From: a virus
Lineage: Duplodnaviria; Heunggongvirae; Uroviricota; Caudoviricetes
Reading direction: 5' to 3' (one strand)
DNA length: 19,645 bases
IMG/VR virus record: IMGVR_UViG_2579778660_000002
Shown: positions 1,331 to 7,900 of the stretch, one piece after another
How positions within the stretch are numbered: the stretch's first letter is position 1
Layout of the letters: each line of letters begins with the position of its first letter
Notes under the pieces: generated by a model
Seen by the model: only the letters and a program-made list of their open reading frames with translations
Told to the model about the DNA's origin: nothing
Databases searched by the model: none
Program-made: the position numbers and the translations under genes

Positions 1331-1440
1331 GCTTTTTTATACTAAGTTGGCATTATAAAAAAGCATTGCTTATCAATTTGTTGCAACGAACAGGTCACTA
1401 TCAGTCAAAATAAAATCATTATTTGATTTCAATTTTGTCC
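1331..1440. other. attL: lambda att core GCTTTTTTATACTAA (1331-1345) followed by the lambda attP P' arm
   Basis: Exact 15-bp core directly visible; left flank ...GTTGAAGCCT matches the bacterial B arm of attB, right flank GTTGGCATTATAAAAAAGCATTGCTTATCAATTTGTTGCAACGAACAGGTCACTATCAGTCAAAATAAAATCATTATTTGATTTC matches recalled lambda P' arm (Int arm-type and IHF sites). Confidence 0.9.
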
Positions 1441-2489
1441 CACTCCCTGCCTCTGTCATCACGATACTGTGATGCCATGGTGTCCGACTTATGCCCGAGA
1501 AGATGTTGAGCAAACTTATCGCTTATCTGCTTCTCATAGAGTCTTGCAGACAAACTGCGCAACTCGTGAAAGGTAGGCGGATCCCCTTCGAAGGAAAGAC
1601 CTGATGCTTTTCGTGCGCGCATAAAATACCTTGATACTGTGCCGGATGAAAGCGGTTCGCGACGAGTAGATGCAATTATGGTTTCTCCGCCAAGAATCTC
1701 TTTGCATTTATCAAGTGTTTCCTTCATTGATATTCCGAGAGCATCAACATGCAATGCTGTTGGGATGGCAATTTTTACGCCTGTTTTGCTTTGCTCGACA
1801 TAAAGATATCCATCTACGATATCAGACCACTTCATTTCGCATAAATCACCAACTCGCTGCCCGGTAACAACAGCCAGTTCCATTGCAAGTCTAAGCCAAC
1901 ATGGTGATGATTCTGCTGCTTGATAAATTTTCAGGTATTCGTCAGCCGTAAGTCTTGATCTCCTTACCTCTGATTTTGCAGCGCGAGTGGCTGCGACCGG
2001 GTTTGTTGTTATATGGCCTTCAGCTATAGCCTCTCGGAATGCATCGCTCAGTGTTGATCTGATTAACTTGGCTGATGCCGCCTTGCCCTCGTCTATGTAT
2101 CCATTGAGCATTGCCGCAATTTCTTTTGTGGTGATGTCTTCAAGTGGAGCATCAGGCAGACCCCTCCTTATTGCTTTAATTTTGCTCATGTAATTTATGA
2201 GTGTCTTCTGCTTGATTCCTCTGCTGGCCAGGATTTTTTCGTAGCGATCAAGCCATGAATGTAACGTAACGGAATTATCACTGTTGATTCTCGCTGTCAG
2301 AGGCTTGTGTTTGTGTCCTGAAAATAACTCAATGTTGGCCTGTATAGCTTCAGTGATTGCGATTCGCCTGTCTCGGCCTAATCCAAACTCTTTACCCGTC
2401 CTTGGGTCCCTGTAGCAGTAATATCCATTGTTTCTTATATAAAGGTTAGGGGGTAAATCCCGGCGCTCATGACTTCGCCTTCTTCCCAT
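1419..2489 (-). CDS. int: Lambda integrase (tyrosine recombinase)
   Basis: 356-aa translation (MGRRRSHERRDLPPNLYIRNNGYYCYRDPRTGKEF...HLLGHKSDTMASQYRDDRGREWDKIEIK) matches recalled lambda Int almost residue for residue; ATG at 2487-2489; 3' end overlaps P' arm as in lambda. Confidence 0.95.
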   Translation of the reverse strand: MGRRRSHERRDLPPNLYIRNNGYYCYRDPRTGKEFGLGRDRRIAITEAIQANIELFSGHKHKPLTARINSDNSVTLHSWLDRYEKILASRGIKQKTLINYMSKIKAIRRGLPDAPLEDITTKEIAAMLNGYIDEGKAASAKLIRSTLSDAFREAIAEGHITTNPVAATRAAKSEVRRSRLTADEYLKIYQAAESSPCWLRLAMELAVVTGQRVGDLCEMKWSDIVDGYLYVEQSKTGVKIAIPTALHVDALGISMKETLDKCKEILGGETIIASTRREPLSSGTVSRYFMRARKASGLSFEGDPPTFHELRSLSARLYEKQISDKFAQHLLGHKSDTMASQYRDDRGREWDKIEIK

Positions 2490-2685
2490 TTCTGATCCTC
2501 TTCAAAAGGCTACCTGTTACTGGTCGATTTAAGTCAACCTTTACCGCTGATTCGTGGAACAGATACTCTCTTCCATCCTTAACCGGAGGAGGGAATATCC
2601 TGCACTCGCGTACCCATCGACGAACTGTTTCAAGGCTTCTTGGGCGTCGCTGGCGTGCGTTCCACTCCTGAAGTGTCAAGTACAT
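2467..2685 (-). CDS. xis: Lambda excisionase
   Basis: 72-aa translation MYLTLQEWNARQRRPRSLETVRRWVRECRIFPPPVKDGREYLFHESAVKVDLNRP... matches recalled lambda Xis; overlaps int start by 23 nt as in lambda; ATG at 2683-2685. Confidence 0.93.
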   Translation of the reverse strand: MYLTLQEWNARQRRPRSLETVRRWVRECRIFPPPVKDGREYLFHESAVKVDLNRPVTGSLLKRIRNGKKAKS

Positions 2686-2710
2686 CGCAAAGTCTCCGCA
2701 ATTACACGCA

Positions 2711-2733
2711 AGAAAAAACCGCCATCAGGCGGC
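2711..2733 (-). terminator. Intrinsic-terminator-like hairpin with U-tract on the minus strand, upstream of xis (tL3-like position)
   Basis: CCGCC/GGCGG stem with 4-nt loop (2719-2732); read on minus strand it is followed by TTTTTT (plus-strand A6 at 2712-2717). Confidence 0.4.
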
Positions 2734-2892
2734 TTGGTGTTCTTTCAGTTCTTCAATTCGAATATTGGTTACGTCTGCATGTGCTATCTGCGCCCACAGC
2801 ATCCAGTGGTCATAGCAGTCGCTGATGTTCTCGGCTTCGATAACTCTGTTGAATGGTTCTCCATTCCATTCACCTGTAACTCGGAAGTGCAT
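2725..2892 (-). CDS. Possible small ORF (55 aa) between ea8.5-like gene and xis
   Basis: ATG at 2890-2892, open to TGA at 2725-2727 (MHFRVTGEWNGEPFNRVIEAENISDCYDHWMLWAQ...); no convincing Shine-Dalgarno; below ORF-track size cut-off. Confidence 0.25.
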   Translation of the reverse strand: MHFRVTGEWNGEPFNRVIEAENISDCYDHWMLWAQIAHADVTNIRIEELKEHQAA

Positions 2893-2980
2893 TTATCATC
2901 GCCATAAAACAAAACTCGCCGTAGCGAGTTCAGATAAAAGAAATCCCCGCGAGTGCGAGGATAGTTACTTGTTCATATTA

Positions 2981-3262
2981 TTAATCGTCAATGTATTTTG
3001 AGCATTGTGGGCAATCATCGATCCCACAATACGATTCATATGCATCCTTTATTGCGTCGCGGGCTTCAGTAAGAGTATTGAATAAGTTGCAGCTATTATC
3101 TTTTTGATATAGGTAAGTTCCTAATTTATAAGCAGAAGAAGCATCATTTCCGCTGTCTAAAATTACATCGTTATGGATTCTGCACCTTGCAAGAACTCCT
3201 GATCCCATAAGGGTCTGCATAGCCCATTGCTCTTGATCTTCACACAAATCATGAATGCTCAT
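2981..3262 (-). CDS. Ea8.5-like small Cys-rich (zinc-finger-like) phage protein, 93 aa from ATG
   Basis: ORF-track frame starts at a GTG (3280), but an ATG at 3260-3262 preceded by AGAGAGG gives a 93-aa product, the length of lambda Ea8.5; position immediately after xis; Cys pattern including CPQC near the C-terminus. Homology not verified by search. Confidence 0.55.
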   Translation of the reverse strand: MSIHDLCEDQEQWAMQTLMGSGVLARCRIHNDVILDSGNDASSAYKLGTYLYQKDNSCNLFNTLTEARDAIKDAYESYCGIDDCPQCSKYIDD

Positions 3263-3376
3263 TTCAACACCTCTCTTCACGTTTCACACACGTTAAGATT
3301 AACAGTGTTTTTACATGCTTTGGGAGATTTATTTTATAAAAACTCTTTTAATACAAATAGATATAATAGTTCACTA

Positions 3377-4174
3377 TTATAGCTCCTTTAATCGAGGCGG
3401 TTCTGGTAGAGGCATCCAGTGGGTTACACCGCCAATTGGCTCATCGTCGTCGTACTCCAATGCGGCTATATAGAACCCGTCACGACGAGAATAAGAAATC
3501 CCGGACATTACAATGCCATCCGAAACAACAATAATGTCACCCGTTTCTTTCGGCATTCGCTCACTACAGCTTATCCAACCATCCGGAGTCACCGGAAGCG
3601 AGAACGGCAGCACATCTCTGTGAACAAGTTTTTGCTGTGACAGGTTATCCAGAACTTTCTGTACTGCTGCATCACCGAATACACCAAGCGCATCTGCCAT
3701 AACTCCTACAACCTGATAAGCCTCAGCGCATACCGTGGATAAACCATCCGGAATTACCGGAGAGTTGCCGGGTTCTTTAATGTGCAAGCGAGGCTCACCA
3801 TCTTTTGGTTCAGGCCACTGGCGCTCCATGTTGATCTTCAATTTATCTTCCATAGCAGCGGTAATTTCAGCATCGCTGATGCCAGCACGGCGCTGTGCAT
3901 CCCACAACAGGAAATGCATATCAGCCCACTCGCTGAGATCGTCTGGTTCGGCTGCGGCTTCCAGAGCCTCTTTTGAGAGGTGTTTCAGTGGACCAATGGG
4001 GCCAACGCAGCCAAATGTGGAGTCAGACCATTTGGCATGCTCGTGGCGAATCAGTTCGCGTTCCAGTGATGCCAGTGCAATTCGTGCCAGTTCCATTTGT
4101 TCGCCACGAGTAAGCCCGTTTTCAAGCGGATTTTTAATGAACAATTCAATACGTTCTTTGGTAATAGTGGTCAT
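3377..4174 (-). CDS. Phage protein with N-terminal MazG-like (DUF550-type) nucleotide pyrophosphohydrolase domain and C-terminal DUF551-type domain
   Basis: 265-aa ORF, ATG at 4172-4174 with AAGGA upstream; N-terminal all-alpha region with acidic cluster EALEAAAEPDDLSEWAD typical of MazG-like NTP-PPases; C-terminal ...GGVTHWMPLPEPP typical of DUF551 as recalled. Family assignment from memory. Confidence 0.6.
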   Translation of the reverse strand: MTTITKERIELFIKNPLENGLTRGEQMELARIALASLERELIRHEHAKWSDSTFGCVGPIGPLKHLSKEALEAAAEPDDLSEWADMHFLLWDAQRRAGISDAEITAAMEDKLKINMERQWPEPKDGEPRLHIKEPGNSPVIPDGLSTVCAEAYQVVGVMADALGVFGDAAVQKVLDNLSQQKLVHRDVLPFSLPVTPDGWISCSERMPKETGDIIVVSDGIVMSGISYSRRDGFYIAALEYDDDEPIGGVTHWMPLPEPPRLKEL

Positions 4175-4184
4175 TTGTTAGTCC

Positions 4185-4940
4185 TTAAACTGCTAGTTGC
4201 AATTGCATTTCAAAGCGGTCGCGTTGTTCACAATACGCAAGAGAACCAGGGCTATTGTGTGCCTCAATCCGTTCTACCATTAATGCTGCGCGTGTCTCTT
4301 TACTTGCAGGTGCATAAGCCCCAGACCAGGCTTTATCAATACCGATGTTTCGAGCGACGTTCGTACTATCTGCGCTGGCTAAGGGTAATTTTGTGAATAT
4401 CAGCGGATTTAACATGCGCAATCCATGTAGTTTCGTAACCGGCTGACCATGCCCATCAACAATGTGACGAATCAGGTCTTTCATTCTGGCTACCGCAAGA
4501 GTTGGGCGCTTTACGTCATAGTCGCCACAACTACCGATAGCCACTCGCGGAAACTCATTGCACAAATGAATAAATCGCGCGTCACTTTCATTCATGTGCC
4601 ACACTGGAACGCCAGCTAGTTTTCCGTGAGGCCACTCATTCAGAAGCGCATCATTTTCCTCCTCTCCGCCATCAATAATATCCGGGATAATGGCAAAATC
4701 GAATCCTGGGTGATTCTTCCAGCGAGCAACAAACTCGTAGTAATCGCTCCAGTCGATTTTGTTTTTGCCAGCTGCTTTCCAGGCGGTGAATGCACCGTTG
4801 TCCAGCGCGAACGACTGACAGTATTCAGCCGCGAGATTGATCTGGCCTGAATGCGCAAAACTGATAAACGCATGTCGCCCTTTCCATGCTCTCATTGCGC
4901 ACGTATCAGGAGTAATAGGCCCACCGTGGTAGTGAATCAT
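4185..4940 (-). CDS. Hypothetical protein with tRNA-guanine-transglycosylase-like (DpdA-like) motifs, 251 aa from the internal ATG
   Basis: ORF-track start at 4982 overlaps upstream gene by 41 nt; ATG at 4938-4940 is preceded by AAGGAGAG and sits 1 nt after the upstream stop. Ordered motifs LDNGAF, AIGSCGD, LHGLRMLNP, TNVARNIG resemble TGT motifs DSGGF, AVGG, LMGVGKP, PTRNARNG; no C-terminal zinc motif. Confidence 0.55.
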   Translation of the reverse strand: MIHYHGGPITPDTCAMRAWKGRHAFISFAHSGQINLAAEYCQSFALDNGAFTAWKAAGKNKIDWSDYYEFVARWKNHPGFDFAIIPDIIDGGEEENDALLNEWPHGKLAGVPVWHMNESDARFIHLCNEFPRVAIGSCGDYDVKRPTLAVARMKDLIRHIVDGHGQPVTKLHGLRMLNPLIFTKLPLASADSTNVARNIGIDKAWSGAYAPASKETRAALMVERIEAHNSPGSLAYCEQRDRFEMQLQLAV

Positions 4941-4941
4941 C

Positions 4942-5349
4942 TCACTCTCCTTTGATGCGAATGCCAGTAGCGCGGATTGCATCGATGACTTCAGAAACTT
5001 TGTATGCCATTACCGTTTGGTAATCATCGTGAAAATCTGTTCGATGAAGCATGCTGCTACGTTCCGGGAGCAGTATTTCCCGCGCTTCCAGTTCTGCAAT
5101 GCGCTTTTTTGCTGCTTCCAGTTCATCCAGTAATTCCAGCACGGTAGCCGGATTAGCCTTGGCAACAAAATCCCGGACTGGCTTACAATCAATCTCCGCA
5201 ATGGGTTGATTCGATGTGTAGCCATGCTGTCTTGTATAACTACCGTGACGAATAACGAAAAAATCACCATTTATTTTTTTAGCCTGCCACTTATCTTCAC
5301 CGGCTTTCTCTGCCGCTTCACGCAGTGCCTGAGAGTTAATTTCGCTCAC
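4942..5349 (-). CDS. Ead/Ea22-like phage protein (GTG start, coupled to upstream stop)
   Basis: 135-aa ORF; start GTG at 5347-5349 overlapping the TGA of the upstream gene (GTGA), GAGAGG 8 nt upstream; coiled-coil segment NPATVLELLDELEAAKKRIAELEAR as in Ea22-like proteins. Confidence 0.6.
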   Translation of the reverse strand: MSEINSQALREAAEKAGEDKWQAKKINGDFFVIRHGSYTRQHGYTSNQPIAEIDCKPVRDFVAKANPATVLELLDELEAAKKRIAELEAREILLPERSSMLHRTDFHDDYQTVMAYKVSEVIDAIRATGIRIKGE

Positions 5350-5567
5350 TTCGAACCTCTCTGTTTACTGATAAGCTCCAGATCCTCCTGGCAACTTGCA
5401 CAAGTCCGACAACCCTGAACGACCAGGCGTCTTCGTTCATCTATCGGATCGCCACACTCACAACAATGAGTGGCAGATACAGTCTGGTAGTTCAGACGAC
5501 GCATTTTTATTGCTGTGTTGCGCTGTAATTCTTCAATTTCTGATGCTGAATCAATGATGTCTGCCAT
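5346..5567 (-). CDS. TraR/DksA-family C4 zinc-finger protein (lambda Orf73-like)
   Basis: 73-aa ORF with CxxC...CxxC (CCECGDPIDERRRLVVQGCRTCASCQ), the size and motif of TraR-like phage proteins; ATG at 5565-5567. Confidence 0.7.
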   Translation of the reverse strand: MADIIDSASEIEELQRNTAIKMRRLNYQTVSATHCCECGDPIDERRRLVVQGCRTCASCQEDLELISKQRGSK

Positions 5568-5665
5568 CTTCCATTAATCCCTGAATTGTTGGTTAATACG
5601 CTTGAGGGTGAATGCGAATAATAAAAAAGGAGCCTGTAGCTCCCTGATGATTTTGCTTTTCATGT

Positions 5666-5947
5666 TCATCGTTCCTTAAAGACGCCGTTTAACATGCCGA
5701 TTGCCAGGCTTAAATGAGTCGGTGTGAATCCCATCAGCGTTACCGTTTCGCGGTGCTTCTTCAGTACGCTACGGCAAATGTCATCGACGTTTTTATCCGG
5801 AAACTGCTGTCTGGCTTTTTTGATTTCAGAATTAGCCTGACGGGCAATGCTGCGAAGGGCGTTTTCCTGCTGAGGTGTCATTGAACAAGTCCCATGTCGG
5901 CAAGCATAAGCACACAGAATATGAAGCCCGCTGCCAGAAAAATGCAT
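5666..5947 (-). CDS. Hypothetical small protein (93 aa from ATG 5947, or 71 aa from ATG 5881)
   Basis: Open frame with two candidate ATG starts, neither with a strong Shine-Dalgarno; occupies the position of lambda orf60a but no recognisable similarity. Confidence 0.4.
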   Translation of the reverse strand: MHFSGSGLHILCAYACRHGTCSMTPQQENALRSIARQANSEIKKARQQFPDKNVDDICRSVLKKHRETVTLMGFTPTHLSLAIGMLNGVFKER

Positions 5948-5957
5948 TCAGTGGTTG

Positions 5958-6149
5958 TCATACCTGGTCTCTCTCATCTGCTTCTGCTTTCGCCACCATC
6001 ATTTCCAGCTTTTGTGAAAGGGATGCGGCTAACGTGTGAAATTCTTCGTCTGTTTCTACTGGTATTGGCACAAACCTGACTCCAATTTGAGCGAGGCTAT
6101 GTGCCATCTCGATACTCGTTCTTAACTCAACGGGAGATGCTTTGTGCAT
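5958..6149 (-). CDS. Small phage protein, 63 aa (lambda orf63-like by position and length)
   Basis: ATG at 6147-6149 gives 63 aa; overlaps the upstream 63-aa ORF by 28 nt, the same overlap geometry as lambda orf61/orf63; ORF-track start at 6164 would run through the G9 tract. Confidence 0.5.
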   Translation of the reverse strand: MHKASPVELRTSIEMAHSLAQIGVRFVPIPVETDEEFHTLAASLSQKLEMMVAKAEADERDQV

Positions 6150-6313
6150 ACAGCCCCCCCCCATTTATTATTTATCTCCTCAGCCAGCCGCTGTGCTTTC
6201 AGGGGATTTCGGATTACAGAAAGGCCGGGAAATACCCAGCCTCGCTTTGTAACGGAGTAGACGAAAGTGATTGCGCCTACCCGGATATTATCGTGAGGAT
6301 GCGTCATCGCCAT
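6122..6313 (-). CDS. Small phage protein, 63 aa (lambda orf61-like by position), start overlapping exo stop
   Basis: ATG at 6311-6313; overlaps exo 3' end by 10 nt; ends just after the homopolymer tract. Confidence 0.5.
6154..6162. repeat. Homopolymer tract C9 (G9 on the coding strand) in the overlap of two small minus-strand ORFs
   Basis: Nine consecutive C at 6154-6162; lies at the frame switch between ORFs 6122..6313 and 5958..6149/6164. Confidence 0.9.
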
Positions 6314-6984
6314 TGCTCCCCAAATACAAAACCAATTTCAGCCAGTGCCTCGTCCATTTTTTCGATGAACTCCGGCACCATCTCGTCAAAACTCGCCATG
6401 TACTTTTCATTCCGCTCAATCACGACATAATGCAGGCCTTCACGCTTCATGCGCGGGTCATAGTTGGCAAAGTACCAGGCATCTTTTCGCGTCACCCACA
6501 TGCTGTACTGCACCTGGGCCATGTAAGCCGATTTTATTGCCTCGAAACCACCGAGCCGGAATTTCATGAAATCCCGGGAGGTAAACGGGCATTTCAGTTC
6601 AAGGCCGTTGCCGTCACTGCATAAACCATCGGGAGAGCAGGCGGTGCGCATATTTTCGTCGCGATAGATGATCGGGGATTCAGTAATATTCACGCCGGAA
6701 GTGAATTCAAACAGGGTTCTGGCGTCGTTCTCGTACTGTTTTCCCCAGGCCAGCGCCTTAGCATTAACTTCCGGAGCCACACCGGTGCAAACCTCAGCCA
6801 GCAGGGTGTGGAAGTAGGACATTTTCATGTCAGGCCACTTCTTTCCTGAGCGGGGCTTTGCTATCACGTTGTGAACTTCTGAAGCGGTGATGACGCCGAG
6901 CCGTAATTTGTGCCATGCATCATCCCCCTGTTCGACAGCTCTCACGTCGATCCCGGTACGCTGCAGGATAATGTCCGGTGTCAT
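6304..6984 (-). CDS. exo: Lambda exonuclease (Red-alpha)
   Basis: 226-aa translation [65 protein letters not shown]... matches recalled lambda Exo with a few substitutions; ATGA overlap with bet stop. Confidence 0.95.
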
Positions 6985-7184
6985 GCTGCCACCTTCTGCT
7001 CAGTGGCTTTCTGTTTAAGGAATCCAAGAGCTTTCACTGCTTCGGCCTGTGTCAGTTCTGACGATGCGCGAATGTCGCGGCGAAATATCTGGGAACAGAG
7101 CGGCAATAAGTCGTCATCCCATGTTTTATCCAGGGCGATCAGCAGAGTGTTAATCTCCTGCATGGTTTCATCGTTAAGGGGGGT
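6981..7184 (-). pseudogene. bet: bet (Red-beta) 3' fragment: only the C-terminal ~60-68 codons remain
   Basis: Translation [67 protein letters not shown] matches the lambda Bet C-terminus; in-frame stop immediately upstream of the homology; no gam between bet and kil. Confidence 0.85.
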
Positions 7185-7326
7185 AGTGAATGCTTTTGCT
7201 TGATCTCAGTTTCAGTATTAATATCCATTTTTTATAAGCGTCGACGGCCTCACGAAACATCTTTTCATCGCCAATAAAAGTGGCGATAGTGAATTTAGTC
7301 TGGATAGCCATAAGTGTTTGATCCAT
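7174..7326 (-). CDS. kil: Kil (host division inhibitor) homologue, 50 aa; C-terminus probably altered by the bet-gam deletion
   Basis: ATG at 7324-7326 lies inside the 3' end of cIII in the lambda kil/cIII overlap arrangement; MDQTLMAIQTKFTIATFIGDEKMFREAVDAYKKWILILK...; ORF-track frame 7174..7452 is the same frame with a spurious N-terminal extension. Confidence 0.7.
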   Translation of the reverse strand: MDQTLMAIQTKFTIATFIGDEKMFREAVDAYKKWILILKLRSSKSIHYPP

Positions 7327-7459
7327 TTTTTGGGACTCCTGGCTGATTAAGTATGTCGATAAGGCGTTTCCATCCGTCACGTAATTTACGGGTGATTCGT
7401 TCAAGTAAAGATTCGGAAGGGCAGCCAGCAACAGGCCACCCTGCAATGGCATATTGCAT
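7295..7459 (-). CDS. cIII: CIII (FtsH/HflB inhibitor), 54 aa
   Basis: Hand translation of minus strand from ATG 7457-7459: MQYAIAGWPVAGCPSESLLERITRKLRDGWKRLIDILNQPGVPKNGSNTYGYPD*, matching recalled lambda CIII; absent from ORF track because under 60 aa. Confidence 0.85.
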   Translation of the reverse strand: MQYAIAGWPVAGCPSESLLERITRKLRDGWKRLIDILNQPGVPKNGSNTYGYPD

Positions 7460-7531
7460 GGTGTGCTCCTTATTTATACATAACGAAAAACGCCTCGAGT
7501 GAAGCGTTATTGGTATGCGGTAACGCCGCGC

Positions 7532-7900
7532 TCAGGCGGCTTTGATAGTCATATCATCTGGATCAAATATTCCTGATGTATCGATATCGGTAATTCTTAT
7601 TCCTTCGCTACCATCCATTGGAGGCCATCCTTCCTGACCATTTCCATCATTCCAGTCGAACTCACACACAACACCATATGCATTTAAGTCGCTTGAAATT
7701 GCTATAAGCAGAGCATGTTGCGCCAGCATGATTAATACAGCATTTAATACAGAGCCGTGTTTATTGAGTCGGTATTCAGAGTCTGACCAGAAATTATTAA
7801 TCTGGTGAAGTTTTTCCTCTGTCATTACGTCATGATCGATTTCAATTTCTATTGATGCTTTCCAGTCGTAATCAATGATGTATTTTTTGATGTTTGACAT
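7532..7900 (-). CDS. Ea10-like protein, 122 aa (lambda position between cIII and ral)
   Basis: ATG at 7898-7900 with GAGGA 10 nt upstream; gene order cIII-ea10-ral as in lambda; identity inferred from position and length only. Confidence 0.55.
   Translation of the reverse strand: MSNIKKYIIDYDWKASIEIEIDHDVMTEEKLHQINNFWSDSEYRLNKHGSVLNAVLIMLAQHALLIAISSDLNAYGVVCEFDWNDGNGQEGWPPMDGSEGIRITDIDTSGIFDPDDMTIKAA

Follow-up and report, generated by a model that had tools for sequence, protein, structure and literature searches.

A singleton DpdA-like gene of the TGT superfamily in the early-left remnant of a defective lambdoid prophage

Introduction

Can a lone transglycosylase, encoded by a phage that lacks the genes for making preQ0, draw on the queuosine pathway of its host to mark DNA? 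This question is raised by an open reading frame at positions 4185-4940 (minus strand) of a 19,645-nucleotide stretch of caudoviral DNA (IMG/VR record IMGVR_UViG_2579778660_000002), referred to here as the window, in which a lambdoid prophage occupies the lambda attachment site beside ybhC. An initial annotation had read the 251-aa product as a protein resembling tRNA-guanine transglycosylase (TGT) and phage DpdA, devoid of the zinc subdomain and dependent on host precursors, and the homology, fold and catalytic residues described below support that reading. The interpretation favored here, with a probability of about 0.6, is that the gene would encode a singleton phage DpdA, that is, a minimal DNA-guanine transglycosylase with a TGT-type TIM barrel that puts host-derived 7-deazaguanine into DNA.

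Phage genes of this kind have already been catalogued. In the survey of Hutinet et al. (2019; PMC6884629), the third and largest group comprises 76 phages that carry DpdA and lack genes for preQ0 or G+ synthesis, and it was proposed that these DpdA-only phages could draw on preQ0 made by the host. Singleton DpdAs cluster apart in Mycobacterium phages and in gamma-proteobacterial phages, and their possible functional divergence was raised as a question by the same authors (PMC6884629). The gene described here is not new and is an ordinary member of this large "DpdA only" group. Its product is 92.4% identical to gp54 of Salmonella phage SPN3UB (YP_007011024), 67% identical to the SfI protein and 35% identical to that of Salmonella phage 7-11, and SPN3UB, SfI, HK106, BTP1 and 7-11 all appear in Supplementary Data 1 of the survey (PMC6884629). 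No functional study of singleton DpdAs from lambdoid phages turned up in literature searches. Among the relatives retrieved, 7-11 is the only one whose DNA has been analyzed, with mass spectrometry detecting a trace of dADG (only 50 per 10^6 nt) and no dPreQ0, and in the DNA of the mycobacteriophage Orion, which also has a singleton DpdA, 7-deazaguanine was absent by the same technique (PMC6884629).

The Gene and Its Start Site

The product of the gene begins with MIHYHGGP. The ATG at 4940 is the likelier start, as opposed to an in-frame ATG at 4982 that would add 14 residues, because a strong Shine-Dalgarno sequence read from the DNA (AAGGAG, 4947-4952, minus strand) lies 6 nt 5' of it, the stop codon of the preceding Ead/Ea22-like gene (4942-4944) is 1 nt away, and the homologues also begin with MIHYHG.

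This is certainly a real gene and not a chance open reading frame. A protein identical to its product is on record in 4753 blocks of a public assembly collection, the protein database yielded more than 7700 scored homologues, and the same allele is carried by 204 of 5426 complete E. coli genomes, of which 188 have an intact reading frame with an identity of at least 99%. The RefSeq entry, WP_000582229.1, is named "hypothetical protein" in each row inspected among the 204 carriers.

A Remnant Early-Left Operon in a Defective Prophage

The DpdA-like gene is part of a remnant lambdoid early-left (pL) operon at 1419-8283 on the minus strand, which was delineated from the RefSeq annotation of an identical stretch and from Pfam matches. 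In the order of transcription, the operon consists of ral, a DUF2528 gene, cIII, kil, a bet fragment, exo, DUF1317 and DUF1382 genes, a DksA-like gene, the Ead/Ea22-like gene, the DpdA-like gene, a pyrophosphohydrolase gene, an ea8.5-like gene, xis and int. The gene directly upstream of the DpdA-like gene (4942-5349, minus strand) matches Pfam PF13935 with an E-value of 2.9e-17, so the earlier statement that the DpdA-like gene replaces lambda ea22 holds only in part, as an Ead/Ea22-like gene remains beside it. The placement of the DpdA-like gene alongside ral has to be corrected, since ral (8083-8283) is about 3.1 kb off and not adjacent. On the other hand, tblastn bears out the reported lack of queC, queD, queE and folE, with no homologues of FolE, QueD, QueC, QueE or YhhQ in the window.

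Directly downstream lies a dATP/dGTP pyrophosphohydrolase gene (3377-4174, minus strand; PF04447, E 1.1e-41, and PF04448). This reading frame is intact and encodes 265 aa in which the PF04447 domain is fused to DUF551; the RefSeq versions of this protein are shorter (206-234 aa), and some genomes have a pseudogene fragment beside the shorter version. In many genomes of the APEC O78 lineage, an IS2 element is located within the ea8.5-like gene downstream of the DpdA-like gene, for instance in E. coli APEC O78 (NC_020163.1, locus L008 666-1894, which corresponds to about 3000-3280 of the window); the element is not present in the window.

The prophage itself is defective. N, pL, cI, cro, O, P and the nin region have been deleted, with N and pL lost upstream of ral, and bet is reduced to a 60-aa fragment. 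As a result, ral abuts a C-terminal fragment of quuD (Q antiterminator), after which come an OmpC/NmpC-like porin gene (8799-9881) and a lysis cassette of the DLP12 type. The large terminase has been truncated, and an IS1 interrupts lom. The heavy deletion is evident at 6981-16443 of the window, with junctions near 7163-7174, 8284-8390 and 15472. A 736-aa open reading frame (14233-16443) is an apparent in-frame fusion of the truncated large terminase with a tail-tip fragment.

Terminator-like hairpins are found upstream of the DpdA-like gene on the minus strand at 7948-7927, 7508-7489 and 5645-5627. Because pL and N are gone and transcription would meet these hairpins, the DpdA-like gene in this window is most likely an intact but poorly expressed passenger. 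A sigma-70 promoter-like site at 8476-8447 (minus strand; GTGACA, an 18-nt spacer and TATAAT) matches at 11 of 12 positions, although such sites are fewer in number than expected by chance. It is located upstream of ral inside the quuD fragment, points into the early-left remnant, and could by chance serve as a promoter from which ral and the genes after it are transcribed.

Assignment to the Phage DpdA Family

Several comparisons place the protein in the phage DpdA family. Against PHROGs, it matches phrog_887, annotated as "queuine tRNA-ribosyltransferase", with an E-value of 2.6e-101. BLASTP aligns it with the DpdA of Escherichia phage CAjan over 153 residues (E 7e-9), and hhalign raises this to a probability of 98.9% (E 1.3e-17) when a 56-member family alignment is compared with CAjan DpdA, and to 99.1% (E 1e-18) when the family is compared with a 20-member profile built around the CAjan protein. 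In these alignments the motifs pair in register, namely LDNGAF with LDSGAF, VAIGS with ITIGG, KLHGL with KLHAF, and SADS with SCDS. The comparison with CAjan DpdA is decisive because deletion of dpdA causes dPreQ0 to be lost from CAjan DNA (PMC6884629). In the structure model, the protein folds as a (beta/alpha)8 barrel of the TGT type, the fold that the initial annotation had named as the thing to check.

The same annotation had suggested a search with Pfam PF01702, and here hmmscan returned no match at E<=1. However, CAjan DpdA, which is experimentally validated, has no PF01702 match either, and the missing match therefore says nothing against membership. Scans of the window protein against Pfam, NCBIfam and PADLOC gave no matches, and searches of PDB sequences with phmmer and with a family-profile hmmsearch returned only noise, such as GCN4 coiled coils; CAjan DpdA also has no match among PDB sequences. 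When compared by hhalign with a single E. coli TGT sequence, neither the window-family profile nor the CAjan-family profile gave a significant result, with the best local alignment of the latter falling on DSGGF/DSGAF. The link to TGT is instead transitive, running by sequence from the window family to DpdA1, to bacterial DpdA and then to TGT, since CAjan DpdA weakly matches the PADLOC DpdA model (E 0.0013) and E. coli TGT matches the bacterial DpdA structure 7UI4 (E 1.7e-4). Taken together, it is very nearly certain that the protein is a member of the phage DpdA family.

The Predicted Active Site

The four TGT-like motifs occur in the order originally described, with LDNGAF at residue 46, AIGSCGD at 134, LHGLRMLNP at 171 and ADSTNVARNIG at 190. 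The C-terminal zinc subdomain is missing, as had been claimed: there is no CxCxxC...H pattern and no C-terminal extension, and the five cysteines of the protein (14, 41, 127, 138 and 237) are not conserved in the family.

Conservation was assessed in 192 distinct family sequences, which range from approximately 33% to 100% identity to the window protein. D47, H172, S189, D191 and S192 are invariant in all 192, D87 and H115 are each kept in 191, and position 51 is aromatic in 191. D47 and D191, the two aspartates whose conservation had been singled out for checking, align with D63 and D206 of CAjan DpdA. With D87, they provide the three active-site aspartates of the TGT superfamily (acid/base, base recognition and nucleophile). 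The active sites of TIM barrels lie at the C-terminal ends of the strands, and in the structure model the predicted active-site residues are situated at or just past the C-terminal ends of strands 3, 4, 5, 7 and 8.

Bacterial DpdA uses D95 as the acid/base, F99 for stacking on the base, D130 and H181 for base recognition and D256 as the nucleophile, and guanine exchange is abolished by the D95A and D256A substitutions (PMC10164549). In Cap10, the base is read by D73, S74, D122 and K154, and the catalytic pair is H226/D248. The predicted active-site residues of the window protein agree in order and spacing with D95/F99/D130/H181/D256 of bacterial DpdA and also with D73/D122/K154/H226/D248 of Cap10; residue equivalence to TGT, bacterial DpdA and Cap10 rests on this order and spacing and not on superposition. 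By analogy, we infer that D47 would act as the acid/base, F51 would stack on the base, D87 and H115 would read the base, and H172/D191 would form the catalytic pair. Such strict conservation of active-site residues argues for a working enzyme as opposed to a decayed one.

Neighboring Genes in Close and Distant Relatives

The company that the gene keeps differs between close and distant relatives. An Ead/Ea22-like gene precedes the DpdA-like gene in all 10 displayed places of the identical protein, but only 21 of 78 close viral loci have it and the loci with proteins about 50% identical lack it altogether, so that it is a frequent but not obligatory neighbor. Of 67 close loci, 19 have the pyrophosphohydrolase gene as the downstream neighbor, compared with 0 of the 80 loci of about 50% identity; a functional link between it and the DpdA-like gene was considered and rejected, as the pairing is confined to close relatives. 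Among immediate neighbors in close viral loci, Ead/Ea22-like genes account for 21, pyrophosphohydrolase genes for 19, Dam or MT-A70 DNA methylase genes for 14 and RusA for 5. Genes for DNA adenine methylases of the Dam (PF05869) or MT-A70 (PF05063) families directly adjoin the DpdA-like gene in loci L069 and L081 and in 12 others (within L019-L098), and this adjacency suggests that the early region of these phages has a small area devoted to DNA modification. Clustering of the flanking ORFs revealed no fixed partner, DpdB-like or otherwise, the neighbors in close viral loci bear no resemblance to DpdB, Cap9 or a CD-NTase, and, in the 80 viral loci whose proteins share 67% identity or more with that of the window, no homologue of FolE, QueD, QueC, QueE or YhhQ was found within 10 kb. 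The identical protein is also encoded in apparently complete lambdoid prophages, either in the same position or after O/P-like replication genes just before the terminase. Both positions are those of an early gene, as expected of an enzyme acting on replicating DNA.

Distant relatives were sampled as 80 environmental viral loci with proteins 44-56% identical, many of which come from one metagenome series and are not independent. A gene for a transporter of the Vut_1/YhhQ family lies just downstream in 24 of the 80 by tblastn and in 34 of the 80 by clustering, scoring 36 bits against Pfam PF02592 (gathering cut-off 27.2). In 10 of the 80, a QueE-like radical-SAM gene, which matches TIGR04322 at an E-value of 1.4e-52 as well as the PHROG "QueE-like" family, is found at most about 400 nt away and mostly abuts the DpdA-like gene. 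In Caulobacter phage DMCA, a QueD/PTPS-like ORF (L003:5705-6001, 98 aa) ends exactly where the DpdA-like gene starts and scores 22.5 bits against Pfam PTPS, for which the cut-off is 22.4. These associations would be anticipated of a family that works with 7-deazaguanine bases taken up from outside or made in part by the host, and they suggest a tie to 7-deazaguanine metabolism.

Two further observations were made in these relatives. The 12.6-kb stretch around the DMCA ORF has no further annotated que gene, and the ORF would thus be a truncated QueD-like partner on its own. Between the DpdA-like and YhhQ-family genes of environmental viral contigs there is a conserved ORF of 80-94 aa (phrog_37496, a PHROG of unknown function; L177:1982-2263 and about 20 other loci among L099-L178), with C25-P26, E62 and H82 invariant and H61 almost invariant. 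Its best local alignment with E. coli QueF, which is not significant, places the Cys on the catalytic Cys190 and FHE on FHE; an assignment as a QueF-like reductase was considered and stays no more than a lead, with no Pfam or NCBIfam match, an hhalign probability of 2% and a Smith-Waterman z of 1.0 relative to shuffled sequences.

Proposed Mechanism and Alternative Explanations

[quoted passage not shown] This base, preQ0 or preQ1, would come from the FolE-QueD-QueE-QueC(-QueF) pathway of the host, which must supply it because the phage has no preQ0 pathway. The genes tgt, queA and queF were found in E. coli K-12 MG1655, and the remainder of the queuosine pathway is also present in E. coli. 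When a lone phage DpdA2 was expressed in wild-type E. coli, 926-3666 dPreQ0 or dPreQ1 per 10^6 nt, depending on the enzyme, appeared in plasmid DNA, whereas neither was seen in a queD mutant (Cui et al., 2023; PMC10516641). Host precursors can therefore sustain a transglycosylase that stands alone, and the window protein could plausibly use host preQ0 or preQ1 to modify DNA. In an intact lambdoid phage, the enzyme would be made early, from the pL operon or the nin region, and would mark some guanines of replicating phage DNA so that restriction is blunted. It is from such comparisons that we infer the substrate, DNA as the target and the anti-restriction role.

Other explanations for this protein differ widely in how well they fit. 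The idea of a generic TIM-barrel enzyme, such as an aldolase-like metabolic moron, that has no relationship to TGT and resembles it in its motifs by coincidence is effectively refuted by the hhalign probabilities of 98.9% and 99.1% to CAjan DpdA and by the YhhQ-family and QueE-like neighbors of its relatives. A TGT-fold enzyme that is active but has moved away from DNA hypermodification, working on tRNA or another RNA, on protein-linked 7-deazaguanine as Cap10 does, or in guanine excision or exchange, is unlikely, even though the trace of dADG in 7-11 DNA, the lack of 7-deazaguanine in Orion DNA and the question asked by Hutinet et al. (PMC6884629) would be in keeping with it. A tRNA substrate sits poorly with a protein that has neither the zinc subdomain nor the further C-terminal domains of tRNA-modifying TGT/ArcTGT, and a role like that of Cap10 with a locus that has no Cap9 (QueC-like) or CD-NTase gene nearby and a protein with no PADLOC match. 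Moreover, the sole statistically significant sequence homology is to a DNA-modifying phage DpdA, and the neighbors are genes of DNA metabolism and DNA methylation. The tested singletons leave almost no 7-deazaguanine in virion DNA despite a perfectly conserved active site, and the DNA-modifying activity of the group may be weak or diverged. One could imagine, at rather long odds, that the singleton DpdAs of temperate enterobacterial phages are not bulk anti-restriction modifiers at all and that they lay down sparse, motif-specific marks from host preQ0 or preQ1, or act on a non-DNA target (RNA or protein-linked deazaguanine), for example to counter a host defense or to mark the lysogen.

A separate matter is whether the gene does anything in this particular genome. 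The chances are about even that it is functionally inert here, an intact reading frame in a decayed, non-inducible prophage with no current role for host or phage. The truncated bet and terminase, the missing N, cI, cro, O, P and nin region, the IS1 in lom, the upstream hairpins with no N to read through them, and the IS2 in the same operon of related APEC O78 genomes all favor this, and are offset by an intact reading frame with 99% identity or more in 188 of the 204 E. coli carriers and by the strong promoter-like site (11 of 12) upstream of ral. As it concerns expression in this strain, such inertness is compatible with the favored reading of the protein as a host-dependent phage DpdA.

The practical value of these findings is a correction of annotation, in that the "hypothetical" RefSeq protein WP_000582229.1 belongs to the phage DpdA family. 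Beyond this, the lambdoid E. coli version offers an easy system for testing whether a lone transglycosylase draws on the host queuosine pathway to mark DNA. This copy sits in a dead prophage, and the same test opportunity exists with HK106, SfI and SPN3UB.

Comparison With Known Systems

Bacterial Tgt (PF01702) has 375 aa compared with the 251 aa of the window protein, which lacks the zinc subdomain and matches Tgt significantly neither by sequence nor by profile. The bacterial DpdA of the Salmonella Montevideo Dpd system (PDB 7UI4) shares 13% identity with the window protein in a structural alignment, is longer (413-436 aa) and requires the ATPase DpdB (PMC10164549), whereas phage DpdAs function without DpdB (PMC6884629; PMC10516641). 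The neighbors of the Dpd island, dpdB (a ParB-like ATPase) and dpdC, are absent near the window gene, and the NCBIfam and PADLOC models of DpdA do not match its product. Cap10 of type IV CBASS (PDB 9NTN), at 10% identity, binds a CD-NTase bearing an N-terminal 7-amido-7-deazaguanine and needs Cap9. The window protein has no PADLOC match, and genes for the operon partners of Cap10, namely Cap9 (QueC-like), a CD-NTase and an effector, are missing both from the window and from the 10 displayed places of the identical protein.

The phage proteins are much closer. The DpdA1 of CAjan and 9g (Queuovirinae), for which insertion of preQ0 has been shown experimentally, is homologous over about 175 residues that span all predicted active-site residues, and CAjan DpdA1 shares with the window protein the aligned motifs DxGAF, xIGG/S, KxHG/A and SxDS. 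CAjan DpdA differs in overall identity (23-25%), in its length of 306 aa with about 90 extra C-terminal residues, and in its location within a folE-queD-queC-queE-yhhQ cluster, partners that the window protein does not have. The closest likeness is to the DpdA-only proteins of gamma-proteobacterial phages such as SPN3UB, from which the window protein has no substantive difference at the protein level. The locations of the genes differ, with that of SPN3UB coming after the replication genes and that of the window lying in the ea region of the early-left operon, within a defective prophage that occupies the lambda attachment site. Features in common with this group are a protein of about 250 aa, no que genes nearby, a temperate phage of the lambdoid or P22-like kind, and a host with a full queuosine pathway.
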